Assembly (NCBI GenBank): GCA_030390025.1
Contig: CM059431.1
Coordinates: 125,552,001-125,616,000, forward strand
Length of the DNA: 64,000 bases
Direction: 5' to 3'
Source: Squalus acanthias
Taxonomy: Eukaryota
Shown: piece by piece, positions 1-51,400 of the stretch
Numbering within the stretch: position 1 is the first letter of the stretch
How the letters are laid out: each line of letters begins with the position of its first letter
Position numbers and translations under genes: made by a program
Notes under the pieces: model-generated
The model's database searches: none
What the model was told of the DNA's origin: nothing
The model's input: the letters and a program-made list of their open reading frames with translations, nothing else

Positions 1-609
1 TCGGGTCATGGGGTCCCCATCTACGCTGACCTCAAACCCGACCACCCTCCCACAATCGTGCTTGTGGGTTGCAAACGCGTGCATATTATCTGACACGTAC
101 GTTTGCATGTCCGTTGGGACATCTGCGACCATAAGCCTGAGGTCGTAGCCTCCGGATGGCTGTACGGTACACAGGACCCCCGTTTCTTCCTCTCCTTGAA
201 TTACCATTACCTCGCCTTTTTCACCTTTAGCCCCCCAGAGACAGTGATTTCTGAGGTCCACGAGGATCCCGTGTCCCGCTAGGAGATCGGACCCGAGAAT
301 ACCTCTTCCACCCCCCTTTTGCCATGCCATCAGTATACACTTCCACTTAAGGCGAAGTGTTCCTAAACGAATGGATAGCGGGAGGGAAAACGTGCCAGCC
401 TGTTCTTTCCCTGTGAACCCTGCTAGCGTGAATGGGACCTTGGTAGATAGCGGCGAGTCAAAAGGGTCATCTGTATGGATTATGGTGCAAGACGCTCCCG
501 TGTCCAACAAATAACTGCCCTTCTGTTTCTCTACCTCCATCTCCACCACAGGTCGCCTCCACGCATCATAGCTGAGCGGACACAGGTAGACGGGCTGTGC
601 TGGTTCTAG
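1..609 (-). CDS. pol: pro/pol N-terminal region (aspartic protease, start of RT region), in frame with gag, partial; not in the supplied ORF track
   Basis: Manual translation gives 203 open codons: LEPAQPVYLCPLSYDAWRRPVVEMEVEKQKGSYLLDTGASCTII...GILGSDLL...FATHKHDCGRVV; catalytic DTG at 496-504 and ILGxDLL motif. Confidence 0.93.
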
Positions 610-612
610 TCA
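606..612 (-). promoter_or_regulatory. Stop-codon readthrough signal UGA-CUAG at the gag/pol junction
   Basis: ...GCC CCA TGA CTA GAA...; pol continues in the same frame; UGA-CUA(G) is an established leaky-stop context. Confidence 0.8.
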
Positions 613-2421
613 TGGGGCACTATTAGACGGTCCTGCGGCACCTACGGGGCCGGTTGCGACCGCCACCTGTCCACGCGCATTCAAAACCATCTTGCGCATG
701 GCTCCTAACACTGCTTCGAGGTCGTCGGGGGAGGTGGGTGCCTTTGCTTCCTTAGGCGGGACAGGCGCCTGGGCTCGGACCGCGGGATTTTTATCCTTGG
801 AATCCTTCCAAGGGTTCCTGCAGTGCTTGCGCCAGTGCCCTGTCTTCCCACACCCGTAACAGGCATTACTTGCCTGTGGGGCGCGATTACCCTCCTGATG
901 CCACTCTCTTTGAGCTGGGGCTGCGGGTCGTACCTCATGTACTCTTCCCTTAAAGGGACGTGTCGTCATACCCCTTATGTTACGGTAACCTAACGTGAGT
1001 CGATTCAAGACCGACTCTTCCGTAAGGTTGAGGTCATTGGGATCGAACCAGGCCTTTGCCTGCTCTCTAACGGCTGGTAAACTGTTGGCTATTATGCACC
1101 TAAGCCAATGAATTAAAGCGGCGCCTTCCACATCTTCGCGCTCGGGCGCACCTAGACAGCTGCGCTCATATACTGGCCACAGCCTGTCGGCAAAAACCTT
1201 CGGGGGTTCTCCCTCCATCTGCACTGTCTGTCCCACTCTAGCAAACGGACCTCCGTCGTTCGCTCCCACTACTTCTAGGACCTCATTTTTCAATTCCTCA
1301 TAACTTTTATTTTCCCTCTTGCTCTCGCCTGAGAGACACTGAAGGACCGAGCTGTCTAACGAGAACAGCAGCATTTTTGCTGTCTCCCCATCATCGCAGC
1401 CGTTGATGGCTGCGGCTTGCTCAACTTCCCTGAAATGGACGGAAGGGTCGTCTACCTCGGTCAGCTTCCTTACGTGGTTTATCATGGCTCTCAGCTGATG
1501 TGAACTGTGAGGCAACACCAGCTGTCCGAGGAGATCCCCCGGTTCTTCCCCACCGTTTCTGCTTGGGCCCCTTTTAACCCCCGTTACTGGATACAACGAT
1601 CCCTTTTCTACTTCCTTTTCAACGGGCTCTTTTGTTTCTTCCGTTGCTTCCTCCCTAACCCAGGTTTCTGAATAGCTGGGTGGCGCGGAGGGCGCAGTGG
1701 CTACTACTTCTTCTGCTTTACTTGGTGGGGAATTTCTAAATCTCTCATTTACTAGCGGCTGGCGCGCCGACGGATTGATAAGGCACACCATGCCGTTCGC
1801 ATTATTCACGGCCTTTTTGAGGCTCTCTATCTCTTTTTGGCAGGCGCTATGGTCGGCTCCCTGAAACTTATCCTCAAGGGCCAACTTATACGCCGACCTA
1901 ACCCCCATTAAGCTCTCTTCCTGAGTTCTTATCTGGGCAGCTTGGCGGTTACATCTTTCCTTCATCCTACTCTCGTTCAATTTTGCTTCAGTGATCTGGC
2001 ACTCGAGATACTCTACCCTTGTTTTAAGGTAACTGGAGACTTCCTGGCTTTCCTGGCGTAACTCATTTAAATTCTTAATGAGCACCTCCCCTCCAGAAAC
2101 CTTCTCCTCCATTTCCTCCTCTAAATGCCTGATTCGAGCTGTTAGCGCTGTATTGGTCTGGTTTGAAATCTGAACCTGCCTTTTGTAGCACATAAGCCAG
2201 ACTGCTTTCTCAACTGCCTTTTTATGCTCCTTACTATCAGTCCACCTTTCAGCTGCCTCTAGTGGGCTCTTATCCGCTAACAACTCACTTATCCACTTTT
2301 TAGTTAGATTAACCTTTCCAAACACATAATCCGCTATCTTTTCCTGCATAACATTTCGTACAGTCATTCCAAAATCTAACACACTACCCTCTCGCTGCCA
2401 GTGTCCTGCCGCGGTCGCCAT
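610..2421 (-). CDS. gag: Gag polyprotein, 603 aa
   Basis: Lies between PBS and protease; CYGCGKTGHWRKHC knuckle at 820-861; N-terminal E/K/Q-rich coiled-coil-like region; PSAPPSY motif at 1672-1692. Confidence 0.92.
   Translation of the reverse strand: MATAAGHWQREGSVLDFGMTVRNVMQEKIADYVFGKVNLTKKWISELLADKSPLEAAERWTDSKEHKKAVEKAVWLMCYKRQVQISNQTNTALTARIRHLEEEMEEKVSGGEVLIKNLNELRQESQEVSSYLKTRVEYLECQITEAKLNESRMKERCNRQAAQIRTQEESLMGVRSAYKLALEDKFQGADHSACQKEIESLKKAVNNANGMVCLINPSARQPLVNERFRNSPPSKAEEVVATAPSAPPSYSETWVREEATEETKEPVEKEVEKGSLYPVTGVKRGPSRNGGEEPGDLLGQLVLPHSSHQLRAMINHVRKLTEVDDPSVHFREVEQAAAINGCDDGETAKMLLFSLDSSVLQCLSGESKRENKSYEELKNEVLEVVGANDGGPFARVGQTVQMEGEPPKVFADRLWPVYERSCLGAPEREDVEGAALIHWLRCIIANSLPAVREQAKAWFDPNDLNLTEESVLNRLTLGYRNIRGMTTRPFKGRVHEVRPAAPAQREWHQEGNRAPQASNACYGCGKTGHWRKHCRNPWKDSKDKNPAVRAQAPVPPKEAKAPTSPDDLEAVLGAMRKMVLNARGQVAVATGPVGAAGPSNSAP
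2403..2420 (-). promoter_or_regulatory. Primer-binding site, tRNA-Arg(TCG)
   Basis: TGGCGACCGCGGCAGGAC is complementary to the 3' 18 nt (GTCCTGCCGCGGTCG-CCA) of vertebrate tRNA-Arg-TCG as I recall it; 5 nt from the LTR end. Confidence 0.88.
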
Positions 2422-2425
2422 TTTC

Positions 2426-4149
2426 TGTAAGGGATTCTCCTGACCCTGCGTGTCTCGTAGCCTGTGAGATTCACGCGGCTCTGTGCAGCCTGTATGTCAG
2501 TGCGGGTCTAGGCCTGGTTGCCTGTTCTGGTCTCCAGCCAGTCTGGGAACACTAGACACACCTGTGAGTGGTTCGAATCACTCTCCCTTACGGTTCTAGA
2601 CACTGGACTTAGATGCGAGAGCAGTAATGGAGATAAAACTCATGTAGACTTGGTTTGAATGGTACGAAATGGAAAATCTTTATTGCATGATACTTAAAAT
2701 TATGAAATACATGTCATACGCACAGATTAATGACAGTACAATCTTACAAACGGTTATAATCAATCTTAGGGAAACGAGGAACGAACGGCACAACGTGAAT
2801 AGGGCACACATTACAAATATCCTTAATCTTTACACCCTCCCCTATCAATATCTATCCTAAACTAGCTTCGTAGGATCTCGAGACTCATGCTCACCACTCG
2901 TAATAACTCGGAGAAATCCCGAATAGCTGATCGGATGTTTTTCACCGCAGCACCCACGTGTCGGTCAGGAGATCTCCTGGTCCCACTTGTTTACTGGCTT
3001 CTGCTGCTCGGGCTAGTAGGCTGGACCGTCTGCTGTAGTGAAGACCTCTGTTGGTTGACTTCACAGTTTAGTCGAGGAGCACCGTTGTCAATATCACTGA
3101 TACGATGTGTTTGCACAGTCCAGTTATCATTGATGCAATATGTTTTGTTAGAAGTTTAAAGAAGAAAACTTCCTGTCGAGAAGACTTGGCTGATCGACCT
3201 ACAGGCGCGGTCGGGATTTACTGACCGTGGCGATGGATATGGTCTTCTTCTCTTCTCCTCTCATCTCATCTCATCTCATCTCATCTCGGGCCTTTGGTTC
3301 CGCTGCCAGTTACCAACATAGGTCTTCGTTACGCGACACGAGGTAGATCCGAACGGATCAGAAAGTTCAACAGTCTTTTCAGAAGAGGCAACAGGCACGC
3401 AGAAGCCTAACTACGAGCACACAGGAGCAGCCACGAGGTTACGAATCGACCGGATAAAACACAGGAGCAGCCACGATGATAAAAGCAGCAAGCGAGCAAG
3501 AGCGGCAAGAGCAAGAGAGCGAATGGACGGTTTGGGGCCTGCAATTATAGTGCAAAAATCTTCCGTTTCCCGCCCAACTATAATGTCCATTCTTTTGTTT
3601 AGGGTTTGGCGCCCAAATGTCTTGTATGGGTGATCTCCGTCCTTAATGGGTTTCGGGGCTACTCATGAATGTTTGAGTACCTGTTAATATTTCTCCCATT
3701 GTTAAATCGGTCGGTGTTCTCCCTGGAGGGGTTTGGGGCTTCCAAGTGTCCTGTATAACTACCTGCTAACGGCTCTCTCATCGTAGAGCCGTTGGGAGTT
3801 TACATATTAATGTCCTTTGGATGGGCCCTTAAGTACTTGGTACAATGGCTTTCCTTTGCACCTGGGAGACCGATTCCAGTATCTATGTTTATACTGCAAA
3901 CCCATAATGTCTCGGGTATTATCTTCACTGTGCTGAATCGTTATCGATCTTGCAAAAATGTTTAATGGAACGCCATCTTGTCTGCCTGTTGAAAAGTCTA
4001 GAATGTTCTGTCACGAGGTGCGGCGGCCATTTTACAGGCTGCTTGTGTCCAATTTAAACCTGACAGCATTCTGCTGAAATAAAAGCTGTTTGAACGAAAC
4101 TTTGTGTTTTCTCCTTATTAATCAAATCGCGATAATTGCGAATTCTACA
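2426..4149 (-). repeat. 5' LTR (1724 bp)
   Basis: Minus strand TGTAGAATTCGC...CCCTTACA; ends defined by homology to solo LTRs at 25764 and 49743; TATAA 3545-3549, AATAAA 2679-2684. Confidence 0.92.
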
Positions 4150-4354
4150 GACTGTGCCATTGCATTGCCATGTTGAAGGTTGTGCATATGTGAGCTTGTT
4201 ACATCCATAACATCTAACATTATGATGCCAGCCCATAGATGCACTGAATTAATTCAGCCTATATACTGACCTGGTCCAGGAGCTCTGGGAAAATCTGAAG
4301 GAAAATCAGGAAAACCTGGGTCTCCATTGTCCTTGGACTTACAGAAATCAGGCA

Positions 4355-5661: not shown

Positions 5662-8600
5662 GGGGTACAGTAGCATAGTGGTTATGTTTCTGGACTTGTA
5701 ATCCAGAGGCCTGAACTAATGATCCAGAGAGGTAAATTCAAATCCCACCACGGCAGCTGGGGAATTTAGATTCAGTTAGTTAAATAAATCTGGAATAAAA
5801 ATTTAGCATCCGTAATGGTGACCATAAAACTATCGGATTGTTGTAAAAACCCATCTGGTTCACTAATATCCTTTAGGGAAGGAAATCTGCCATCCTTTAC
5901 CTAATCTGGCTCCAGACCCAAAGCAATGTGATTGACTCTTCTTAACTGCCCCTTTAAATGGCCAGCAAGCCACTCCGATGTACCAAACCGCTACGGAAAA
6001 CAATAATAAAAATAAAACTGGACGGACCAACCGGCACCAAGCTCGGCAGCGGCTTCGGGCACGACAAAGGCACACCAAGTCCAGTCAACCCTGCAAAGTC
6101 CTCCTCACTAACATCTGGGGACTTGTGCCAAAATTGGGAGAGATGTCCCACAGACTAACCAAGCAACAGCCTGACACAGTCAAACTCATAGAATCATACC
6201 TTTCAGCCGATATCCAGGCTCCTCCATCACCATCCCTGGGTATGTCCTGTCCCACATGTAGGACAGACCCACCAGAGGAGGCGGCACAGTGGTATGCAGT
6301 CGGGAGGGAGTGGCCCTGGGAGTTCTCAACAATGACTCCGGACCCCATGAAGTCTCATGGCTTCAGGTCAAGCATGGGCAAGGAAACCTCCTGCTGATTA
6401 CCACCTACCACCCTCCCTCAGCTGATGAATCAGTATTCCTCCATGTTGAACACCACTTGGAAGAGGGCACAGAATGCATTCTGGGTGGGGGACTTCAATG
6501 TCCATTACCAAGAGTGGTTCGGGAGCACCACTACTGACCGAGCTGGCCGAGTCCTGAAGGACATAGCTGCCAGACTGGGCCGATGTCCTTCAGGTGGTGA
6601 GAGAACCAACATGAGGGGAAAAACGTACTTGACCTCATCCTCACCAATCTACCTGTCACTGGTGCATCTGCCCATGACAGTATTGGTAGCAGTGGCTACT
6701 GCACAGTCCTTGTGGAGACGAAGTTCCGTCTTCATACTGAGGACACCCTCCATCGTGTTGTGTGGCACTACCACCGTGCTAAATGGGATCAATTCAGAAC
6801 AGATCTAGCAGCTCAAAACTGGGCATCCATGAGGCACTGTGGGCCATCAGCAGCAGCAGAATAGTATTCCACCACAATCTGTAACCTCGTGGTCTGGCAT
6901 ATCCCTCACTCTACCATTACCATCAAGCCAGGGGACCAACCCTGGTTCAATGAGGAGTGTTGAGCATGCCAGGAGCAGCACCAGATGTACCTAAAAATGA
7001 GGTGCCAACCTGGGGATGCTGCAACACAGGACTACATGCATGCTAAACATCAGAAGCAGCATGCTATAGACAGGGCTAAGCGATTCCACAACCAATGGAT
7101 CAGATCAAAGCTCTGCAGTCCTGCCACATCCAGTCATGAATGGTGGTGAACAATTAAACAACTAATGGGAAGAGGAGGCTCCATGATTATCCCTATCCTC
7201 GATGATGGCAAAGCCCAGCACTCGAATGCAAAGGACAATGCTGAAGCGTTTGCAACCATCTTCAGCCAGAAGTGCTGAGTCGATGAACCATCTCGGCCAC
7301 CTCCTGAGGATCCCATCATAGAAGCCAGTCTTCAGACTATTCGATTCACACCACATGATGTCAAGAAACGGCTGAGCGCACTGGATACAGCAAAGGCTAT
7401 GGGCCCCAACAACATCCCTGCTGTCGTGCTGAAGACTTCTGCTCCAGAACTAGCCGCGCCTCTAGCCAAGCAGTTCCAGTACAGTGACAACACTGGCACC
7501 TACCCGACAATGTGGAAAATTACCTAGGTATGCCTTGTCCACAAAAAGCAGGACAAATCCAATCCGGTCAATTACCACCCCACCAGTCTACATTCAATCC
7601 TCAGCAAAGTGATGGAAGGTGTCATCGACAGTGCTATCAAGCCCCACTTACTAACCAGTAACCTGCTCACGGATGCTCAGTTTGGGTTCCACCAGGACCA
7701 CTCGGCTCCAGACCTCATTACAGCCTTGGTCCAAGCATGGACAAAAGAGCTGAACTCCAGAGGTGAGGTGAGAGTGACTGCCCTTGACATCAAGGCAGTA
7801 TTTGATCGAGTGTGGCATCAAGGAGCCCAAGTAAAATTGAAGCCAATGGGAATTAGGGGGAAAACTCTGCACTGGCTGGAGTCATCGAGCACAAAGGAAG
7901 ATGGTTGAGGTTGTTGGAGGCCAATCATCACAGTCCCAGGACATTGCTGCTGGAGTTCCTCAGGGCAGTGTCCTAGGCCCAACCATCTTCAGCTGCTTCA
8001 TCTATGACCTTCCCTCCATCATAAAGTCAAATGTGGGGATGTTCGCTGATGATTGCACAGTGTTCAGTTCCATTCGCAACTCCTCAGATAATGAAGCAGT
8101 TCATGCCCGCATGCAGCAAGACCTGGACGACATTCAGGCTTGGGCTGATAAGTGGCAAGTAACATTTGTGCTACATAAGTGCCAGGCAATGACTATCTCC
8201 TTCAAGAGAGAGTCTAACCACCGCCCCTTGACATTCAATTGTATTACCATCACCAAATCCGGCACGATCAACATCTTGGAGGTCACCATTGACCAGAAAC
8301 TTAACTGGACCAGCCACATAAATTATGTGGCTACAAGAGCAGGTCAGAGGCTGGTTATTCTGCGGTGAGTGTCTCACCTCCTGACTCCCCAAAGCCTTTC
8401 CACCATCTACGAGACACCAGTCAGGAGTCTGATGAAATACTCTCCACTTGCCTGGATGAGTGCAGCTCCAACAACACTCAAGAAGCTCAACACCATCCAG
8501 GACAAAGCAGCCAGCCTACTTGATTGGCACCCCATCCATCACCTTAAACATTCACTCCCTCCACCACCGGCGTACTGTGGCTGCAGTGTGTACCATCTAC

Positions 8601-8950
8601 AAGATGCACTGCAGCAACTTGCCAAGGCTTCTTCGACAGCACCTCCCAAAACCGCAACCTCTACCACCTAGAAGGACAAGGACAGCAGGCACATGGGAAT
8701 ACCATCACCTCCATGTTCCCCTCCACGTCACACATCATCCTGACTTGAAAATATATTGACGTTCCTTCATTGTCACTGGGTCAAAATCCTAGAACTCCCT
8801 CCCTAACAACACTTATGGGAGTACCTTCAACACAGGGACTGCAGCGGTTCAAGAAGGTGGCTCACCACTACCTTCTCAAGGGCAATTAGGGATGGGCAAT
8901 AAATGCTGGCCTTGCCAGCAACGCCCACATCCCATGAATGAATAACAATA
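5662..8950 (+). mobile_element. Near full-length single-ORF (EN-RT) CR1/Jockey-group LINE with tRNA-derived 5' head, decayed
   Basis: EN motifs (TNIWGL, PDTVKLIESY, GDFNV), RT motifs (ALDIKAVFDRVWH, GVPQGSVLGP, FADD), multiple stops/frameshifts; A box at 5671-5681. Confidence 0.88.
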
Positions 8951-24130: not shown

Positions 24131-27100
24131 TCAATTCAATATGATCATGGCTGATCCTCTATCACAATACCATATTCCCGCTCTCTCCCCATACCCCTTG
24201 ATGCCTTTTGTGTCTAGAAATCTATCTATCTCCTTCTGAAATATATTCAGTGACTTGGCCTCCACCGCCTTCTGTGGTAGAGAATTCCACAGTTTCACCA
24301 CCCTCTGAGTGAAGAAATTTCTCATCTCAGTCCTAAATGTCCTACCCAGTATCCTGAGACTATGACCCCTCGCTCTCAACCCCCCAGCCAGGGGAAGCAT
24401 CCTTCCTGCATGCAGTCTGTCTAGCCCTGTCAGAATTTTATACATTTCAATGAGATCCCCTCTCATTCTTCTAAACTCTAGTGAATACAGTGCTAGTCGA
24501 CCCAATTTCTCCTCATACGACAGTCCTGCCAGACCAGGAATCAGTCTGGTGAACCTTCGCTGCACTCCCTCTATGGCAAGTATATCCTTTCTTAGGTAAG
24601 GAGACCAAAACTGCACATAGTACTCCAGGTGTGGTCTCACCAAGGCCCTGTATAACTGTAGTAAGACATCCTTGCTCCTGTACCCAAATCCTCTTGCAAT
24701 GAAGGCCAACATACCATTTGCCTTCCTAACTGCTTGCTACACCTGCATGTTTGCTTTAAGTGACTGGTGTACAAGGACACCCAGGTCCCTCTGTACATCA
24801 ACATTTCCCAATCTATCACCATTTAAATAATACTCTGCCTTTCTGTTTTTCCTACCGAAAGGAATAACTTCACATTTCTCCACGTTATACTGCATCTGCC
24901 ATGTATTTGCCCACTCACTCAACTTGTCTAAATCGCCTTGAAATCACTTTGCATCCTCCTCACAACTCACAATCCCACCTAGTTTTGTGTCGTCAGCAAA
25001 CTTGGAAATATTACATTTGGTTCCCTCATCCAAATCATTGATATATATTGTGATTGGTGAACTCAAGCATAGGTCCCTTGCAGTCAGAATCAGGGGAATT
25101 TATAATGGGGAACAAAGAAATTGCAGACCAATTAAATACATACTTTGGCTCTGTCTTCACGAAGGAGAACACAAATAACCTCCCAGAGATGTTGGGGAAC
25201 ATAGGGTCTAATGAGAGGGAGGAACTGAATGAAATCAGTATTGTAGGGAAATGGTGTTAGGGAAATTGATGGCATTAAAGGCTGATAAATCCCCAGGGCC
25301 TGATAATCTACATCCTAGGGTACTTAAGGAAGTGGCCCTAGAAATAGTAGATGCATTGCTGGTCATCTTCCAAAATTCTATAGACTCAGGAACAGTTTCC
25401 CATGGATTGGAGGGTAGCTAATGTTACCCCACTGTTCAAAAAAGGTGGTAAAGAAAAAACGGGGAATTATAGTAAGCCTGACATCGGTTGTGGGGAAAAT
25501 GCTAGAGTCCATTATAAAAGATGTAATAGTAGAGCACTTGGAAAACAATGACAGGATTGGACAAAGTCGACATGGATTTACAAAAGGTAAATCATGCTTG
25601 ACTAATCGACTGGAATTTTTTGAGGATGTAACTGATAGAATAGGTAAGGGTGAACCAGTGGATGTGGTGTATTTGGACTTTCAGAAGGCTTTCGATAAGG
25701 TCCCGCATAAGAGATTAGCGTGTAAAGTTAAGGCACATGGGATTGCGGGCAAGGTACTGACTTTGTAAGGGTTGCGTGTCTCAGACGGTGCTGGTGCGAG
25801 GTTAGGCCTTCGTTGCCTAATACTATTGCTTGCTCTGGTCTCCGGCCAGCCTTATTGCAATAAGCACCTGTGAGTGGTTCGACCCACTCGCCCTTACGGT
25901 TCTAACACTGGACTTAGGTGCAGGGAGCAGTAATGCAGAGAAAACTCAAATAGACCCGGTTGAATAGTACGAAATGGAAATCTTTATTGCATAGCGTCCA
26001 AAATCATGAAGTACATGTCATAGGCGCAAATTAACGAGAGTACAAGTATACATACATTCATAAAGCATGGTCTATGGAAATGAAGAACGCACGGCACATC
26101 GTAAAAAGGGGAACACATTATACTTTAACCTTAATAACCACCCTCCCTTAACAATACCTACACTACATCTAGATTTGTAGGATCGTGAAACATGCTCACC
26201 ACTCGTTTAAATTCGGAGATTTTAAAGTGAGGCACTCAGCTCGTTTCGCTGCAGCGCCTGACTGTCACATCTTTGGAAAGGTCTCTGTACCCCACTTGTT
26301 TATTTTCGCTGCTGCGACAAGCAGGCCAGACACCCTGTTGTCATGAAGAACTCGACTGACCTCGGACACAGTTCAAAGAAGAGACTTCCTGTGCTCGACA
26401 CCGGTTGTCGGTAGACTTCAATGAAAAGTTCTTTATTTATATTTTTGGGCGCGGTCGGGGTTTACTGACCATGGCGGCACGTGGATTCTTCTCCTCTTCT
26501 TCTCGTCTCATCTCGTCTCTTCGGGCCTCCGGGTCCAGACACCGTTTACCGACCCTCGGGATGGTGTACCCTGTTACTTGCCCTTGTCGGGGCGGCTCGT
26601 TCCGATTGAGCTCCACCCAACACTTGAATAAACTGACCAGTACGGCTAAGAGTCAAGAGTCAACAAAGTCCAGAGAGAAAATCAAGAGGCTGCAAGTCAA
26701 GCGAGTTCATGAAGAGGCAAGCGAATAAGAGAATAAACCCTCAGCAGTCAGCAGCGAGATAAGAGACCGATGGACATTTGTTCTCTATAGTTATAGTGAT
26801 GTGTCCTCCTTATCTCCCGCTCAAATCTTAATGTTTGTCCTTTGTGTAATATTGGCGCACAAAACTCCCAGCATGGGGCGGTTGTCTTCTTTAACGGGTT
26901 TCGGTAGCACATGAAACTGGCCAACTATCCGTTAATGTTTTCCCCATTGTTGACCCAGCCAGGATGTGTATGAATCATCTCCCTGACTGGTTTTGGGGGC
27001 CCCCGAATACTGACTTAATCACCCGTCAATGTCTCTCTCATTGTAGAGCCGGGGGGGTATTTGAGTTTTGATGTGTCTGGATGGGCCTTCGCTTGCCCAG

Positions 27101-27328
27101 TACAATGATTCTTTCTGTGCATAGGAAAACGATTCCAGCACTTATATCTTTGCTATTGTTCCAAATGCAAACGGGTTGCATCCTGTGTTTATCAGTGTTT
27201 ACCGAGTATGATCCAATCTTATACTAAATGTATATTCGACGCCATCTTGTCTGCCCACTGTGCTACTGGAAGCTTCTGCCACGATGCGCGGCGGCCATTT
27301 TACAGGCTTCTGTGTCCTTTATTATCAG

Positions 27329-27687
27329 TGATGCGGAGATGCTGGCGTTGGACTGGGGTGGACAAAAATGAGAAGTCGCACAACACCAGGTTATAGTCCA
27401 ACAGATTTATTTAAAATTACAAGCTTTCAGAGCTGTCGCCCCTTCGTCAGGCAAAGTTACTGTGAGAGAATCTATCAGAATTCACAGAATATAAAAACAC
27501 AGAGAAAATGCATAGATTAAATAAAGGGAAAGATTTAATCTATGCATTTTCTCTGTGTTTTTATATTCTGTGAATTCTGATAGATTCTCTCACAGTAACT
27601 TTGCCTGACGAAGGGGCGACAGCTCCGAAAGCTTGTAATTTTAAATAAATCTGTTGGACTATAACCTGGTGTTGTGCGACTTCTCAT
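27329..27687. mobile_element. Penelope-type palindromic non-autonomous insertion, 12-bp TSD
   Basis: CTTTATTATCAG at 27317-27328 and 27688-27699; 155-bp inverted arms 27368-27522 / 27533-27687; absent from the sister LTR at 49743. Confidence 0.85.
27601..27638 (+). ncRNA. Minimal type I hammerhead ribozyme-like motif
   Basis: TTGC-CTGACGA-A-GGGGC GACA GCTCC-GAAA-GC-TT-GTAA: conserved CUGANGA and GAAA cores, stem II, palindromic AGCT stem III, 4-bp stem I. Confidence 0.6.
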
Positions 27688-30600
27688 CTTTATTATCAGG
27701 ACAGCATTTCGTTTAATAAAACTGATCAAACGAATCTGCTTCTCTTGTGTTATTTTGAATCGCGATAATTGCGAAACTTTACAACTTGGATAGAGAACTG
27801 GTTGGCAGACAGGAAGCAAAGAGTTGGAATAAACGGGTCTTTTTCCGAGTGGCAGGCAGTGACTAGTGGGGTTCCGCAGGGATCGGTCCTAGGACCCCAG
27901 CTATTCACTATATATATTAATGATCTAGACGAGGGAACTAGATGTAATATCTCCAAGTTTGCAGATGACACAAAGCTGGGTGGGCGTGTGTGCTGCGAGG
28001 AGGATGCCAAGAAACTCCAGTATGATTTGGACAGGTTGGGTGATTGGGCAGAAGCATGGCAGATGCAGTATAATGTGGATAAATGCGAGGTTATCCACTT
28101 TGGTGGCAAAAACAGAAAGGCAGATTATTATCTGAACGGCAATAGATTGGGAGAAGGGGAAGTGCAACGAGACCTGGGTGTCCTTGTGCACCAGTCGCTG
28201 AAGGTAAGCATACAGGTGCAGCAGGCGGTGAAGAAGGCAAATGGTATGTTGGCCTTCGTAGCGAGAGGGTTTGAGTATAGGAACAAGGATGTCTTGCTGC
28301 AGCTGTACAGGGCCTTGGTGAGACCACACCTTGAGTATTGTGTGCAGTTTTGGTTGCCTTATCTGAGGAAGGATGTTCTTGCCATGGAGGGTGTGCAGCG
28401 AAGATTCACCAGACTGATACCTGGGATGGCAGGAATGACATACGAGGAGAGATTGGGTCGAATGGGCTTATACTCGTTGGAGTTTAGAAGAATGAGAGGA
28501 GATCTCATTGAAACTTATAAAATTCTAACAGGGCTAGACAGACTGGATGCAGGAAGGATGTTCCCGATGGCGGGTGAGTCCAGAACAAGAGGTCACAGTC
28601 TAAAGATAAGGGGTAAGCCATTTAGGACAGAGATGAGGAGGAATTTCTTCACCCAGAGAGTGGTGAACCTGTGGAATTCTCTACCACAGAAGGCAGTTGA
28701 GGCCAAGTCAGTAAATATATTCAAGAAGAAGTTAGATATATTTCTTAAGGCTAAAGGTGTCAAGGGATATGGGGAGAAGGCAGGGACAGGGTACTGAGTT
28801 TGGATGATCAGCCATGATCTCATCGAATGGCAGAGCAGGCTCGAGGGGCCGAATGGCCTACTCCTGCTCCTATCTTCTATGTTTCTATGTTTCTATGAAT
28901 AGCTTGGGCCCAAGCACTGATCCCTGCGGTACCCCACTAGTCACCGCCTGCAACCCCGAAAAAGATCCATTTATTCCTACTCTCTGTTTCCTGTCTGTTA
29001 ACCAATTTTCAATCCATGCCAGTATATTACCCCCAATCCCATGTGCTTTAATTTTGCACACTAACCTCTTATGTGGGACTTTATCAAAGGCCTTCTGAAA
29101 ATCCAAATACACCACATCCACTGGTTCTCCCTTATCTATTCTACCAGTTACATCCTCAAAAAACTCCAGTAGGTTTGTCAAGCTCGATTTCCCTTTCATA
29201 AATCCATGTTGACTTTGTCTAATCCCTTTTGTATTTTCAAAGTGTCCTGTAATCACATCCTTTATAATAGACTCCAGCATTTTCCCTTCTACTGATGTTA
29301 GGCTAACCGGTCCATTGTTCCCCTGTTTTCTCTCTCCCTCCTTTTTTAAAAAGTGGGGTTATATTTGCCACCTTCCAATCTGCAGGAACTGTTCCATAAT
29401 CTATAGAATTTTGGAAGATGACAACCAATGCATCCACTATTTCCATGGCTACCTCTTTTAGTTCTCTGGGATGCAGATTATCAGACCCTGGGGATTTATC
29501 AGCTTTCAGTCCCATTAATTTCTCCAGCACTATTTTTGTACTAATACTAATTTCTTTTCATTCCTCCTTCTCACTAGACCCTTGGTTCCCGAGCATTTCT
29601 GAGAAGTTATTTGTGTCCTCTTCCGTGAAGACAGAACCAAAGTATTTGTTTAATTGCTCTGCCATTTCCTTATTCCCCATTATAAATTCTCCCGTTTCTG
29701 ACTGTAAGGGACTTACATTTATCTTCACTAATCTTTTTCTTTTTACATACTTGTAGAAGCTTTTACAATCCGCTTTTATGTTCCTTGCAAGTTTACTCTC
29801 CTACTCTATTTTTCCCCTCTTAATCAATCTCTTGGTCCTTTTTTGCTGAACTCTAAACTGTTCCCAATCCTCAGGCTTGCTACTTTTTTCTTGCAACTTT
29901 ATATGACTCCTCTTTGGATTTAATACTATCCTTAATTTCTTTTGTTAGCCATGGTTGGGCCTCTTTTCCTTTTGTGTTTTTGCGCCAGAAAGGAATGTAT
30001 AACTGTTGCAATTCATGCATTCATTCCTTAAATGTTAGCCATTGCCTATCCACCGTCATGCCTTTTAATGAAGCTCCCCAATCTATCATAGCCAACTCAC
30101 TCCTCATACCTTCGTAGTTTCCTTTGTTTAGATTTAGGACCCTAGTTTCGGATTGGACTTCTTCACTTTCCATCTTAATGAAGAATTCTATCATGTTATG
30201 GTCACTCTTCCCTAAAGGCCCCCGCACAAGAAGATTATTAATTAACCCCTTCTCATTGCACAATACCCAATCTAGGATAACCTGTTCCCTAGTTGGCTCC
30301 TCAATGTACTGGCCTGAAAAACCATCTCGTACACACTCCAGGAATTCATCCTCCACAGTATTATTGCTAATTTGGTTTGGCCAGTTTATATGTAGATTAA
30401 ATTCACCCATGATTACTGTAGTACCCTTGTTACATGCATCTCTAATTTCCTGTTTAATGGCATCTCCTACATTCCCACTACTGTTTGGAGGCATATAGAC
30501 AACTCCCACCAATGTTTTCTGCCCCTTGGTGCTTCGTAGCTCCACCCATACTGATTCTACATCTTTATTTTCTGAGCCAATATCCTTTCTCACTATTGTT

Positions 30601-35751: not shown

Positions 35752-38700
35752 ATAAAAAAAAATGTAATTCATTTTTATGGGATTTGGGCATCGCTGTCCA
35801 GGCCAGCATTTATTGCCCATCCCTAGTTGCCCCTTGAGAAGGTGGTGGTAAGCTGCCTTCTTGAATTGCTGCAGTACGTGTGGTGAAGGTACTCCCACAG
35901 TGCTGTTGGGTAGGGAGTTCCAGGAATTTGACCCAGCGACGATGAAGGATCGGCGATATACTTCTAAGTCAGGATGGTGTGTGACTTGGAGGGGAACTTG
36001 GAGGTGGTGGTGTTTCCATGCGCCTGCTGCCCTTGTCCTTCTAGGTGGAAGAGGTCGCGGGTTTGGGAGGTGCTGCCGAAGAAGCCTTGGCGAGTTGCTG
36101 CAGTGCATCCTGTAGATGGTACACACTGCAGCCATGGTACGATGGTGGTGGAGGGAGTGAATGTTTAAAGTGGTGGATGGGGTGCCAATCAAGCGGGCTG
36201 CTTTGTCCTGGATGGTGTTGAGTTTCTTGAGTGTTGTTGGAGCTGTAGTCATCCAGGCAAGTGAAGAGTATTCCATCACACTCCTTATTTGTGCCTTGTA
36301 GATGGTGGAAAGGTTTTGGGGAGTCAGGAGATGAGACACTCATCGCAGAATACCTAGCCTCAGACCTGCTCTTGTTGCCACAGTATTTATGTGGCTGGTC
36401 CAATTAAGTTTCTGGTCAATGGTGACCCCCCCAGGATGCTGATGGTGGGGGATTCGGCGATGGTAATGCTGTTGAATGTCAAGGGGCGGTGGTTAGACTC
36501 TCGCTTGTTGGAGATAGTCATTGCCTGGCACTTCTGTGGCATGAATGTTACCTGCCACTTATCAGCCCAAGCCTGAACGTCGTCCAGGTCTTGTTGCATG
36601 CGGGCGTGGACTGCTGCATTATCTGAGGAGTTGTGAATGGAACTGAACACTGTGCAGTCATCAGCGAACATCCCCATTTCTGACCTTATGTTGGAGGGAA
36701 GGTCATTGATGAAGCAGCTGAACTGGCTGGGCCGAGGACACTGCCCTGAGGAACTCCTGCAGTGATGACCTGGGGCTGTGATGATTGACCTTCAACCACC
36801 ACATACATCTTCCTTTGTGCTAGGTATGACTCCAACCAGTGGAGAGTTTTACCCCCCAATTCCCATTGACTTCAGTTTTACTAGGGCTCCTTGATGCCAC
36901 ACTCGGTCAAATGCTGCCTTGATGTCTAGGGCAGTCACTCTCACCTCACCTCTGGAATTCGTCTCCTTTGTCCATGTTTGGACCAAGGCTGTAATGAGGT
37001 CGGGAACCGAGTGGTCTTGGCGGAACCCAAACTGGGCATCAGTGCGCAGGTTATTGGTGAGAAAGTGACTCCAGACCCACAGCAATGTGGTTGACTCTTA
37101 ACAGCCCTCTAAAATAGCCTAGCATTTCACTCAGTTGCAACTAAACGCTATGAAACAAAATAATAAGAATGAAACTGGACGGACCACCCGGCATCGACCT
37201 CATCACCGGCTACGGACACGGCAACGGCACACCCAGCCCAATCAACCCTGCAAAGTCCTCCTCACCAACATCTGGGGACTTGTGCCAAAATTGGGAGAGC
37301 TGTCCCACAGACTAGTCAAGCAACAGCCTGACATAGTCATACTCACAGAATCATACCTTTCAGCCAATGTCCCAAACTCCTCCATCACCATCCTATGTCT
37401 TGTCCCACCGGCAGGAATGACCCACCAGGGGTGGTGGCACAGTGGTATACAGTCGGGAAGGAGTGGCCCTGGGAGTCCTCAACATTGACTCTGGACCCCA
37501 TGAAGTATCATGGTTCCAGTTCAAGCATGGGCAAGGAAACCTCCTGCTGATTACCACCTACCGCCTTCCCTCAGCTGATGAATCAGTTCTCCTCCATGTT
37601 GAACACCACTTGGAAGAAGCACTGAGAGTAGCAAGGGCACAGAATGTACTCTGGGTGGGGGACTTCAATGTCAGGGCCCATTGCCTTTGCCATATCCAGT
37701 GCGCTCAGCCCATTTCTTGATATCACGTGGAGTGAATCGAATTGGCTGAAGACTGGCTTCTGTGATGGTGGGGATCTCAGGATGAGGCCGAGACAGATCA
37801 TCCACTTGGCACTTCTGGCTGAAGATGATTGCAAACACTTCAGCCTTGTCTTTTGCACTCACGTGCTGGGCTCCACCATCATTGAGGATGGGGATATTCA
37901 TGGAGCCTCCTCCTCCCGTTAGTTATTTAATGGTCCACCACCTTTCACAACTGGATGTGGCAGGACTGCAGAGCTTTGATCTAATCCGTTGATTGTGGGA
38001 TCGCTTAGCCCAGTCTATAGCATGCTGCTTCCGCTTTATAGCATGCAGGTAGTCCTGTGTTGCAGCTTCCACAGGTTGGCACCTCAGTTTTAGGTACGCC
38101 TGGTGCTCCTCCTGGCATGCTCTTCTACACACGTTGTTGAACCAGGGTTGTTCTCCTGGCTTGGTGGTAATGGTAGAGTGAGGGATATGCTGGGCCATGA
38201 GGTTACAGATTGTGGTGGAATAAAATTCTGCTGCTGCTGATGGCCCACAGCGCCTCATGGATGCCCAGTTTTGAACTGCTAGATCTGTTCTGAATCTACC
38301 CATTTAGTACGGTGGTAGTGCCACACAACACGATGGAGGGTGTCCTCAACGTGAAGACAGGACTTCGTCTCCACAATGGCAGTGCGGTGGTCACTGCCAC
38401 CAATACTGTCATGGACAGATGCATCTGCGACAGGTAGATTGGTGAGGATGAGGTCAAGTAGGTTTTTGCCTCATGTTGGTTCTCTCACCAGACTTGCAGT
38501 TATGTCCTTCAGGACTCAGCCAGCTCGATCAGTAGTGGTGCTTCTGAGCGACTCTTGGTGATAGACATTGAATTCCCCCACCCAGAGTACATTCTGTACC
38601 CTTGCTAATCTCAGTGCTTCTTCCAAGTTGTGTTCAACATGGTGGAGTATTGATTCATCAGCTAAGGGAAGGCGGTTTCCTTGCCCATGCTTGACCTGGT

Positions 38701-39931
38701 GCCATGAGACTTCATGGGGTCCGAAGCCAATTTTGAGGTCTCCCAGGGCCACTCCTTCCCGAAGGTATACCACTGTGCCGCCACCCCTGGTGGGTCTGTC
38801 CTGCCGGTGGGACAGGACATACCCAGGGATGGTGATGGAGGAGTTTGTGACATTGGCTGAAAGGTATGATTGTGTGAGTATGAATATGTCAGGCTGTTGC
38901 TTGACTAGTCTGTGTGACTGCTCTCCCAATTTTGGCACAAGTCCCCAGATGTTGGTGAGGAGGACTTTGCAGGGTCGGCTGGGCTGGGTGTGCTGTTGCC
39001 GTGTCCGTAGCTGGTGCTGGGTGGTCCGTCCGGTTTCATTCTTATTATTGTGTATCGTAGCAGTTTGTTACAACTGAGTGGCTTGCAAGCCATTTCAGAG
39101 GGCAGTTAAGAGTCAACCACATTGCTGTGGGTCTGGAGTCACACATAGGCCAGACCAGGTAAGGACAGCAGATTTACTTCCCTAAAGGACATTAGTGAAC
39201 CAGATGGGTTTTTACGACAATCCAATAGTTTCATGGTTACCATTACTGATACTAGTAATTATTCCAGATTTATTTAATTATCTGAATTTAAATTTCTCCA
39301 GTTTCCGTGGTGGGATTTGAACTCACGTCTCTGGATCATTAGTCCAGGCCTCTGGATTACATTACCACTACGCTACCGTTCCCACTTTGACAGTGACAAC
39401 AGTCCCCATCTGAGTCCTCTGCAGCAGAACTAGGTTGCGATCTCGCCCTCTGGTAAGCAGGCACCTGTGCTATTCTTTTCCCCAGCCTGGCTCCAGCGCA
39501 CTTGTGCCCAGCTTCTTACCACGTGCAGATCCCGCCTCTATACTGCACTTGGGGACAATCCCAGGCAATCAGGAGGGGAGAAGGTCGGCTATTGTGACTT
39601 GTGGAGGGCAAAGGTCAGCCATATCGACTTGTGGAGGGCAAAGGTCAGCCATAACAACTTGTGGGGGCAGAAGGTCAGCCATCGTGGCAGGGAGTGAGAT
39701 CAGATTTCGGGGCTGGTGGGGGGTGGGTGGTGATTGGCAGTCACAGCAGGCGGGAGACAGAGGCCACGATTTTCACTATTACTGATACTAGGTTTTTTAT
39801 TCCAGATTTATTTAATTAACTGAGTTTAAATTCCCCAGCTGCCGTGGTGGGATTTGAACTCACGTCTCTGGATCATTAGTCCAGGCCTCTGGATTACTAG
39901 CCCAGTGACATTACCATTATGCTACCATTCC
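35752..39931 (-). mobile_element. Rearranged copy of the tRNA-headed LINE (duplicated head, internal inverted segment)
   Basis: Homologous to 5662-8950; heads ending at ~39383 and ~39931; + strand segment ~37066-37672. Confidence 0.85.
39580..39685. repeat. ~30-bp minisatellite, about 3.5 copies
   Basis: AAGGTCAGCCATATCGACTTGTGGAGGGCA-like unit repeated. Confidence 0.85.
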
Positions 39932-48409: not shown

Positions 48410-51400
48410 GGCCGCAAATTTAATAGAGCTAAGAGGGCGGGTTTGGAGGCGGGTCAGTAGGGAAAATCGGAAAAATTGACGGCGGGCTGTGATCCCGCCT
48501 CCATCCCGGCTCCACGCTACTTTGGCAAGTGTTGGGTCAGCGGCTCCCGAACCGACCCGACACCAAATGGTGGGAGAGGCACTTAAGGCAGTTAACAGCT
48601 TGTACCTGCCTGGATAATCTTATTTTAACTGCCTGTTCAGATTTTGCAGCTTTTTCTGCAAGTTGCCTGTCATCATAAAAACACGCCAGCTGCATTGTGC
48701 CGGGTTTAGCGAGGACCTGATTTGTTGGCAGCTGCTGTAACAACTTAAAAGCAGTTCTGCAATATCTCTGAGTTTCAGATGCCCGAACTTAGTGCTTTGA
48801 GGTTTTGGCAAACATTTATCAGCTCTACTAATCTTGTGAGTGTTCAAGCTGAAATCCATCTGCAGTGTGACCTCCTTGGACTACCTTCTGGCCACTTTGT
48901 CTGCGCGCAAACAATCTCTATTCCTCGACTGAGATATATACCAGCGGTATGGGAACCATTTATCTCCTCTCATCCTGGTCGTCAGATTTGGAGGAAGAGC
49001 AGCCGTGGCGGCAGCGCAACCAGGCACAGCAGCAGCACCAACAACAGGAGCGCCAACCTTCTCCTCCGCCACCTGATGATGCACAGGGCACAGGGCGTCA
49101 ACGCAGGGCTGCACCTCGTCGCTGGAGATACGCCCAACACAGGGTTTATAGGCAAAGGATAAGCTGCCTCAACATGAGTGAGCAGCAGTATCAAAGGAGG
49201 CTGAGACTTTCGCGAGAGGTAGTCGCTGACATCTGCACAATGCTGCCTCCATAAAGGCAGCGCTCGTGTTTGAGATGGACTCCTCCATTCTCTGCATGCG
49301 CGCAGTTACCGTGGATGCAAACCCTTTCAAAGACTCCTGCACTTGTTCCTGGAGTTCTAGCACTGCTCTCTTTCTGGATGGCCCCAGAGGCACAGCGTCT
49401 ACATGCAGCTGAGCAGAGCTGGGAGCGCCCTGCGACCTCCAACGAGGACTCTCCACTGCTGTGGCTGTCTGAACCATCTGCTAATGCTCACTTGTGAGCT
49501 GTGATACACCAGGTGACAACATGTCACGAAGGACCCGCCGAGGTGTGCGTTTCTGCGCTGGTGCTGGGTGCGCTGAGTCCTGGTGACGCTGCTCCCTCAG
49601 AGGCTGCAGGTTCCTCTGAGGAGTCGTCTGGCTCTTCCTCCTGGACAGTGGGGAGGGGGGCTCTCGATGGTCCTGTGGGAGAGTAAAGGCATGAGTTAGA
49701 CATCTGATTTTTAGGTTGCAGACACATCCTATTGTGCAGATGTGTAAAATTCGCAATTATCGCGATTCGAAATAACGAGATAAAGCAGATTCGTTTCATC
49801 AGTTTTATTTCAACGAAATGCTGTCATGATTAATCAGGACACAGAAGCCTGTAAAATGGCCGCCGCGCCTCGTGGCAGAAGCTTCCAGAATTTTCAGTGG
49901 GCAGACAAAATGGCGTTCGAATAAACATTTATAAGTAATACGCAGCAAACACTGATAAAGACAGGATGCAACCTGTCTGCATTCGACACAATAGCAAAGA
50001 TATAAGTGCTGGAATCATTTTCCATGCACAACTAAGGACCATTGTACTGGGCAATCGAAGGCCCATCCAGATACATCAATACGCAAATTCCCCCACGGCT
50101 CTACAATGAGAGAGCCATTCTCGGGTGATTTAGTCAGTATTCGAGGAGGCCCCAAAACCAGTCAGGGAGACTCCTAGCTGGTTCGACAATGGGGAAAACA
50201 TTACCGGATAGTTGGCCAGTTTAAGGTGCTACCGAAACCCATTAAAGGAAAGAATCACCCCATACTGGGAATTTTGAGCGCCAAGATTTTACAAAGGATG
50301 AACATTAAGATTTGGGCGGGAGATAAGGGCACCCAGCACTATAACTATAGTGAACAAATGTCCATCGGTCTCTTATCTTGCTGCTGGCTGCTGAACTCTC
50401 TTATTCCTCTGATCCTCCCGGGGCTGATTCATTTGAACTGACTTTTGACGCGGGCTGAACTTTTATTCTCCTATGTTGGGTGGAGCTCAATTTGGAACGA
50501 GCCGCCTCAACGGAGGCCAGTGACCGGGTGCACCATCCCGAGGGTCGGTAAACGGTGTTCTGGACCCGAAGGCCCGAAGAGATGAGACGAGACGAGATGA
50601 GAAGAGAAGAAGAAGAATCCACGTGCCACCATGGTCAGTAAACCCCGACCGCGCCCGTAAATATAAAGACCATTTTTGAACTCTACAGGTTACTGCATGA
50701 ACTGGTCAAAGACTCTTCTTTGAAGTCTACCGGCTAACTGGTGTCGGTCCAGAAAGACTTTTCTTTGAGTTCTACAGCCGGGCCCGAGCACTGTCGAGTT
50801 CTTCATGACAACGGGGAGCCCAGCCTGCTAGCCGGAGCAGAGAAGATAAACAAGTGGGGTACAGAGACCCCTTCCAACACGTGACGGTCAGGTGTTGCAG
50901 CGAAACAAGCCGAGTGCCTTACTTTAAAATTCTCCGAAGTATCACGAGTGGTGAGCATGTTTCCTCGATCCTACAAATCTAGATTAGTGTAGGTATTGAT
51001 AGGGCAGGGTGATTTTATTAAGGATAAATATAATGTGTTCCCCTTTTTACGATGTGCCGTGCGTTCCTCATTACCCTAGACCAAGCTTTATGAATGTATG
51101 TATACTTGTACTGTCGTTAATTTGTGCCTATGACATGTACTTCATGATTTTGGACATTATGCAATAAAGATTTCCATTTCGTACTATTCAACCGGGTCTA
51201 TTTGAGTTTTCTCTGCATTACTGCTCTCGCACCTAAGTCCAGTGTTAGAACCGTAAGGGCGAGTGGGTCGAACCACTCACAGGTGCTTATTGCAACAAGG
51301 CTGGCCAGAGACCAGGGCAAGCAATAGTATTAGGCAACGAAGGCCTAACCCCGCACAAGCACCCTGAACCGAAACCCCTTACAGATGATCAAAAGTTAAT

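Follow-up and report, generated by a model that had tools for sequence, protein, structure and literature searches.

What kind of retrovirus left the copy that begins at one end of a 64,000-nucleotide (nt) stretch of the Squalus acanthias genome, and does a lineage that is already known account for it? The stretch, called the window here, is G000:C7:125552001-125616000 of a 3.71-Gb assembly (G000; GenBank GCA_030390025.1, contig CM059431.1), and we analyzed it together with the adjoining 10 kb (L031). Positions 1-4149 of the window, on the minus strand, hold the 5' third of an endogenous retrovirus (ERV) of 12,814 bp by coordinates (~12.8 kb), and the remainder lies in L031. Taken as a whole, our model is that this provirus is probably a recent copy of a large, young family of ERVs like the snakehead retrovirus (SnRV), which belong to class III and clade Huo. 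The provirus would work like a simple readthrough-type retrovirus with an SnRV-type Gag and an F-type Env.

The provirus has the order LTR-PBS-gag-(UGA)-pro-pol-env-LTR (LTR, long terminal repeat; PBS, primer-binding site), and every gene frame is open across the window and L031. An initial annotation, made from the window sequence, had described a young provirus without disabling lesions, and this description held: gag is open over 603 codons, pro and pol are open to the window edge, and the only stop is the TGA at 612-610, the sole stop between the gag and pol frames, which that annotation did not mention. The comparison of the 5' and 3' LTRs revealed 2 differences in 1,724 positions, corresponding to an age of 0.26 million years (My) under a mammalian rate or of 2.6 My under the shark rate that Han 2015 (PMC4422223) assumes, with a 95% range of 0.3-9.5 My at the slow, shark rate. 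The CpG observed/expected ratio was 0.75-0.85 across 1-4149, compared with 0.34-0.47 in four flanking blocks, so that CpGs are retained as claimed. The target-site duplication (TSD) suggested at 4150-4153, GACT, was found at both provirus ends. The provirus is a very young, recently integrated ERV copy with all genes open. Among the features by which invading ERVs are recognized in the accessible part of PMC10435555, we found gag, pro, pol and env to be intact (open frames and catalytic motifs), and the LTRs of the window copy, which differ at 2 of 1,724 sites, are not identical as that definition asks. No free-standing sense open reading frame (ORF) of at least 100 aa, of the kind of the extra genes of SnRV, was found in the provirus.

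Pattern searches of the whole assembly indicated a large family. They yielded 2,776 LTR-PBS junctions, 2,099 LTR starts close to the window LTR, 705 gag-pol junctions of the UGA-CUAG form and 848 matches for the insert segment of a pol-less form, counted as pattern matches among which there may be tandem arrays and duplicates from the second haplotype; no control with a reversed pattern gave a match. In the 30 best-scoring loci, a sample that includes the window copy and is biased to the youngest, 28 carried the ATG plus 603 gag codons, 24 were also open over the ~700 pol codons read, and the 5' flanks were all different, bar one shared pair. The distinct gag variants showed 48 synonymous versus 40 nonsynonymous changes, where 22% synonymous was expected (p=3e-11, no transition-bias correction). 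This synonymous excess indicates, at the level of sequence, that gag was under purifying selection during replication. Some 2,800 internal-bearing copies of 9-13 kb would make ~0.7-1% of the assembly. Elephant-shark ERV content has been put at ~0.007% in a source accessible in part, and the accessible part of PMC10435555, a screen that covers 13 cartilaginous-fish genomes, has no chondrichthyan order among the 37 orders with invading ERVs. A narrow literature search for an intact recent shark ERV burst gave no match. We also observed many more class III-like RT (reverse transcriptase) loci in the genome, 35-40% identical to a Loki (lokiretrovirus) query and some with stops, which suggests that older related families exist.

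LTR starts lying 7.6-7.7 kb apart in the assembly led to a sister form that lacks pol (L072, G000:C1:86698300-86704600), the single such copy read. Its gag and env are open and ~98% identical to those of the full form, and the UGA-CUAG junction is also kept. Protease to integrase is swapped for ~330 unrelated bases, and the pol tail lies in frame behind the UGA, suggesting that the tail, or its RNA, does something. We infer that the pol-less form borrows RT and integrase in trans; the family would have spread through reinfection, with the gag+env form carried in trans by pol-bearing copies.

To place the family, we compared its RT with reference sequences. The SnRV reference was a 10,688-nt record (L037) from a profile search of viral contigs, its RT being the SnRV row of the lokiretrovirus paper alignment, and SnRV features were taken from L037 and the accessible parts of PMC12193657, PMC2717909 and PMC13517186. 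Motif scans supplied the references for gamma, epsilon and foamy viruses, and Loki was represented by two motif-identified contigs (L050 and L051); a single-protein search of viral contigs gave no match. Over 279 RT residues, identity was 91% to the relative P0003, 44-55% to frog and coelacanth ERVs, 43.5% to SnRV, 38.7% to the best gamma, 37.9% to the best epsilon, 36.8% to the best foamy virus and 33.6% to Loki. Judged by these sequences, Pol has its nearest counterparts in SnRV and in ERVs that have been published as SnRV-like.

The closest published ERV is lineage I of CmiERV from the elephant shark (accessible text of PMC4422223), which shares ~61% of RT residues (83/137 in a by-eye translation). 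The motifs ATHKHDCG, PACAP and LDISNGFWSIPL, a coiled-coil-like Gag, an in-frame TGA after gag and a chondrichthyan host are common to both. CmiERV lineage I differs in being old (LTR divergence 0.033, ~75 My) and decayed, in its LTR of ~0.83 kb, its other PBS and its several hundred bases of leader ahead of gag, and, according to our sequence reading, in a gamma-type Env with an immunosuppressive domain (ISD) and CX6CC. As far as its accessible text goes, Han 2015 placed this lineage with SnRV; taken with the likeness, this placement puts the element in the SnRV-like group, or clade Huo, of the literature. Sources accessible in part describe SnRV-like elements as the main ERV class of the coelacanth and class III ERVs as common in cartilaginous fish. 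The group and its host are not new; as far as narrow searches reach, the novelty lies in the leaderless Gag start encoded by the PBS, in the UGA-CUAG junction, and in how large and how young the expansion is. Since the group has one exogenous member in the accessible literature and its elephant-shark representative is old and decayed, an open-frame family is informative on the group's genes in their intact state.

SnRV itself is the closest named virus (RT 43.5-45.8%), with a homologous Env, a non-myristoylated coiled-coil Gag with one knuckle, and an in-frame gag-pol stop. It differs in its stop context (UAG-GGC, not UGA-CUAG), in a Gag ATG 252 nt past the PBS start, in its PBS sequence, in its accessory ORFs, in an Env tail of 136 residues (~30 here), and in a tether, the RNase H-like domain behind RT, that is 27% identical. 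The feature set that the initial annotation had called atypical is present in the provirus; it is not unprecedented, because SnRV, in the sources cited above, has the non-myristoylated coiled-coil Gag and the in-frame stop.

A phylogeny of RT plus tether was built from 41 rows, two of them Loki, with ERV-L, fish foamy-like ERV (FLERV), class II and Odin rows absent; partial RT rows with short matches, including P0172-P0174 and L063, were dropped from the trees, as were gamma, foamy and Gypsy rows that were redundant. The element was split from Gypsy at 100/100 and from Loki at 100/99, and it fell outside class I (100/98), the clade of gamma and epsilon viruses, whose Gly2 and gamma-type CX6CC Env are absent here. 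The RT core alone placed the element beside ERVs of coelacanth and frog (SH-aLRT 93), within the canonical retroviruses (97). In the tether-only tree, SnRV joined the element's group (89) on a long branch. Foamy viruses likewise have a long LTR, a 4-bp TSD and a non-myristoylated coiled-coil Gag. Their Gag has no Cys-His box, their Pol comes from its own spliced mRNA and their primer is Lys, whereas the provirus has a CCHC knuckle, pol in frame behind the gag stop and an Arg primer. An F-related Env, reported for foamy viruses in PMC11468914, is another common feature. Tree position, knuckle, in-frame pol and dual RNase H together bear out the earlier statement that the layout is neither gamma-, epsilon- or foamy-type nor that of Gypsy.

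Several observations weigh against an SnRV-like assignment. In the free tree of RT plus tether, SnRV, foamy viruses and class I came together (87/90), with the element's group outside. Under the approximately unbiased (AU) test, neither monophyly of the group with SnRV (p=0.23) nor a grouping of the element and foamy viruses (p=0.29) was rejected. For the tether, identity is 41% to Loki versus 27% to SnRV, and for the integrase it is ~42% to lamprey Loki (Loki-Pma; 94/~226, by eye) versus 36% to SnRV. The Gag likeness to SnRV is weak (E 4e-4, in the coiled-coil region only), and the accessory ORFs, long Env tail and 250-nt leader of SnRV are missing from the provirus. No stable readthrough-stimulating structure was found in the 123 nt past the UGA (z=+0.84). 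Finally, Env of the window copy differs from that of L072 at 5 residues, two of them just past the cleavage site, so the open frame need not mean a functional Env.

These findings give some weight to a reading in which the element's family, CmiERV lineage I and the coelacanth and frog 'NYNRIN-like' ERVs form a separate deep canonical lineage that has been lumped with SnRV, has kept its Loki-type tether and integrase from an ancestor, and stands closer to the Loki split than any other canonical lineage. We regard it as possible, yet clearly the less probable account. The position outside the SnRV, foamy and class I clade and the Loki-leaning tether and integrase speak for it, as do the F-type Env and coiled-coil Gag common with Loki. 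NCBI names relatives of the group 'NYNRIN-like', and NYNRIN we take to be the same as CGIN1. The Loki integrase has been published as sister to CGIN1. However, SnRV and foamy viruses are long branches, so that their exclusion of the group may be an artefact, the AU test leaves the group with SnRV unrejected, higher identity to Loki can simply mean slow evolution of a common ancestral sequence, and the tree held only the rows given above. A slowly evolving lineage may have retained the Loki-like tether and integrase as ancestral sequence; alternatively, these domains may mark a separate deep branch. A new basal lineage had been proposed at the outset, and it is still conceivable because monophyly with SnRV was neither shown nor rejected. 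SnRV-like ERVs are already reported from the elephant shark (PMC4422223, accessible text). It is doubtful that the provirus represents an undescribed deep canonical branch near the Loki split that is still invading the shark germline and uses a primer tRNA over the Gag AUG as a translation/packaging switch. The combination of a canonical RT with a tether and integrase of Loki-like character is relevant to the question of how the split between retroviruses and lokiretroviruses came about.

The provirus is very improbable as a lokiretrovirus, which would be the first of cartilaginous fish. Like Loki and the zebrafish BHIKHARI elements (accessible parts of PMC7947760 and bioRxiv 2024.03.25.586437), it has a tether plus RNase H, an F-type Env fold, a coiled-coil Gag, a similar tether and integrase, and recent multi-copy activity. 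Its RT, in contrast, has the canonical motifs, LPQGF among them, lacks PLSRWPM and CPFG.NSPAEFNIFL of the Loki rows, and lies outside the Loki clade; forced grouping with Loki was rejected (AU p=0.002). Bik-1 has a glycine-rich patch where the provirus has its CCHC knuckle, and the provirus is without an smc-like ORF. F-type folds also occur in the Env of walleye dermal sarcoma virus (WDSV), walleye epidermal hyperplasia virus (WEHV) and foamy viruses, so an F-type Env is no marker of Loki, and Env gave no sequence match to PF00523. A Loki RT query of the genome gave nothing above 40% among 124 scored matches. The lokiretrovirus-like identity put forward earlier is refuted for RT, and only a recombinant Loki-donor origin of integrase or tether is conceivable. 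An env-carrying Ty3/Gypsy element, or copies made by segmental duplication or assembly error, is scarcely credible: a feature search (Atlas) with Gag put retrotransposon Gag clusters first (0.92), the top whole-Pol PDB match was Ty3, almost level with an RT of murine leukemia virus (MLV) type, and some copies are tandem, but RT stands apart from Gypsy at 100/100, a degenerate tether plus second RNase H replaces the single RNase H that follows RT in Metaviridae, the 5' flanks of the 30 loci differ as described, and the window copy has its own TSD. Tree and flanks refuted both versions.

Features of the provirus and of related elements in the window and in L031
Feature	Position	Strand	Remark
Protease (DTG at 504-496) and RT start	1..609	-	frame runs on open into L031
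In-frame gag-pol stop, UGA-CUAG context	606..612	-	TGA at 612-610; candidate readthrough site
gag, 603 aa, no Gly2	613..2421	-	open over 603 codons (2421-613)
Single CCHC zinc knuckle	820..861	-	from sequence; PF00098 E=0.3; annotated in skate homologue
Capsid C-terminal domain, residues 384-492 (predicted)	946..1272	-	top structural match 6hwx (MLV capsid)
Gag coiled-coil region, residues 68-215 (predicted)	1777..2220	-	model pLDDT 56-75; weak coiled-coil Pfam matches
PBS	2403..2420	-	18/18 to tRNA-Arg(TCG); begins 5 nt past LTR
Gag start codon	2419..2421	-	last spacer base and first two PBS bases
5' LTR, 1,724 bp, TGTA...TACA	2426..4149	-	2 transitions relative to 3' LTR
Conserved U5 block	2559..2598	-	93% kept in a solo LTR otherwise ~76% identical
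Sole sense AATAAA of LTR	2679..2684	-	probable polyadenylation signal in R; U5 would be ~235 nt
TSD GACT	4150..4153		identical 4 bases at far provirus end, L031:1132-1135
3' LTR	L031:1136-2859		differs from 5' LTR at 2/1,724 positions
env, 783 aa	L031:5633-3285		after pol, before 3' LTR
Older related solo LTR, ~76% identical	25764..27783	-	TSD ACTT; interrupted by inverted-repeat insert
Older related solo LTR, 70-75% identical	49743..51383	+	TSD GATG

The start of gag overlaps the primer site. As the initial annotation had recognized, the LTR is very long and the PBS is of the Arg type: at 18/18 positions it is complementary to the 3' terminus, with CCA added, that tRNA-Arg(TCG) genes in the same genome encode. 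The primer of SnRV is also tRNA-Arg. We found that the PBS encodes Gag residues 1-7, M-A-T-A-A-G-H, and that the Gag ATG was present in 100/100 listed of the 2,776 LTR-PBS junction matches. In frame upstream of this ATG, a stop is reached without another ATG. Both Gag homologues found start with M-A-T at the same place; one member of the homologue cluster is annotated from an ATG 25 codons upstream of it. In the skate, the Gag N-terminus is M-A-T-T-K-G-H, and its back-translation predicts a different tRNA 3' end, whose single match in the window genome is a tRNA-Arg(TCG) isodecoder. One chance match of the skate-derived pattern is possible in 3.7 Gb, but it would hardly be expected to fall on the 3' terminus of a gene for tRNA-Arg. 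Because the isodecoder matches, the Gag N-terminus appears to co-vary with the primer tRNA, and from the skate protein the start in this relative is predicted to be PBS-encoded as well. A narrow literature search found no title on a gag start overlapping the PBS; in yeast Ty1, the PBS lies inside gag. The primer tRNA gene is highly amplified in the host genome, and tRNA-Arg(TCG) genes were observed in large tandem arrays (period ~1.62 kb) at G000:C26:38.9-42.2 Mb, with 429 pattern matches genome-wide.

Because no leader separates the LTR from gag, R/U5 would have to hold both the env splice donor and the 5' untranslated region, and packaging signals would lie in R/U5 or within gag. Gag would be translated from the AUG inside the PBS, where an annealed tRNA-Arg would cover the start codon. 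It is conceivable, though we put it somewhat below an even chance, that tRNA-Arg annealing shifts the RNA from translation to packaging and reverse transcription. The overlap would directly predict how a retroviral RNA chooses between the two fates.

The Gag protein begins M-A-T, with predicted helices at residues 68-183 and 192-215, in agreement with the long coiled coil and missing Gly2 noted earlier. The structural model is poor, with a mean predicted local distance difference test (pLDDT) score of 50.7 from 3 sequences. The capsid domain matched 6hwx with Z 11.8 and a root-mean-square deviation (rmsd) of 2.6 over 96 residues, and helical matches at such Z are suggestive only. The nearest named Gag is that of the skate Rhinoraja longicauda (51%). 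By analogy with what has been proposed for SnRV and foamy Gags, the coiled coil would stand in for myristate-driven targeting of Gag, which we think somewhat more probable than otherwise. At the gag-pol junction, UGA-CUAG was identical in 30/30 loci read and in 100/100 listed of the 705 junction matches. This context, which alphaviruses use as their type II signal, is reported to give readthrough of at least ~1.3% in human genes, in sources accessible in part. The accessible text of a 2026 review gives UAG-GGA, UAG-GAU, UAG-GGC, UGA-AGA, UGA-CGA and UGA-AGU as retroviral stop contexts, with no UGA-CUAG. From the sequence context, Gag-Pol would very probably be made through low-level readthrough of this stop.

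The pol frame runs for 1,494 codons and encodes protease, RT, the RNase H-like tether with another RNase H behind it, integrase and a C-terminal tail; RT, RNase H and integrase all carry their catalytic motifs. The tether is degenerate; dual RNase H is common to all canonical retroviruses and thus non-diagnostic. The tail past integrase (L031:5925-6730) has ~270 acidic, proline-rich residues and is open in the full and pol-less forms, as is an antisense frame of 185 codons across it. In the pol-less form, the ~330-nt foreign insert joins the protease start to the pol tail in frame, and some of the matches to this insert are in tandem arrays.

The env ORF that had been sought beyond the window edge encodes a protein that starts like a signal peptide and carries ten N-glycosylation sequons, with RQRR at 327-330. 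It also has long heptad helices, a beta region rich in cysteine, a transmembrane helix and a tail of ~30 residues; no CX6CC was found in it. The Env model, with a mean pLDDT of 61.5 and mostly high values over 240-650, matched paramyxo- and pneumovirus F proteins (best E 1.4e-11, F of human parainfluenza virus 3, hPIV3; TM-score 0.28 relative to the query and 0.47 relative to the target, with a high rmsd), and it also matched the WEHV, WDSV and foamy Env models. The Env profile matched SnRV Env (hhalign probability 90.7, E 1.2e-6), which plain BLASTP of Env did not retrieve. The nearest named Env is that of Rhinoraja longicauda (74%), and more relatives were found in Chiloscyllium and Mustelus. 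The N-terminus gave weak Ig-like matches (Pfam Ig_3 E=0.57, CD8-alpha E=0.54) where model confidence is low, and UniRef names one shark Env homologue Ig-like. Env would be a furin-cleaved, F-type class I fusogen, expressed from a spliced mRNA through an acceptor-like sequence 15 nt upstream of the env ATG. The stretch is covered by contigs from four runs whose type is uncertain; none of the 9 joints listed led to the env acceptor, a result that is neutral either way.

Within the LTR, the AATAAA is probably a polyadenylation signal in R, judging from its sequence. A 10-mer at this signal is common to SnRV (L037:26-35) and the window LTR (2684-2675); the SnRV RNA begins 25 nt ahead of it, which by analogy hints that R is short and U3 long in the window LTR. 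TATA-like boxes at 3893, 3549 and 2758, with 13 upstream ATGs below 3549, do not fix a transcription start. Within the conserved U5 block, a run of 7 nt, for which a role may be supposed, is complementary to the primer tRNA's T-loop, and the U5-PBS fold is only mildly stable (z=-1.95). In the block and in its counterpart at 25865-25904, the sequence forms a hairpin whose loop is complementary to the T-loop.

The 4-bp TSDs previously noted for the solo LTRs were found at both older copies in the window. The insert in the first of these holds a near-perfect inverted repeat at 27364-27691, with 159-nt arms that are 99% alike and lie 10 nt apart. In addition, the window contains two sets of dispersed repeats, 70-90% alike and in both orientations (5949-8813 and 35899-39019; 24165-25759, 27809-29733 and 58563-59553), both of which are probably fragments of long interspersed nuclear elements (LINEs).

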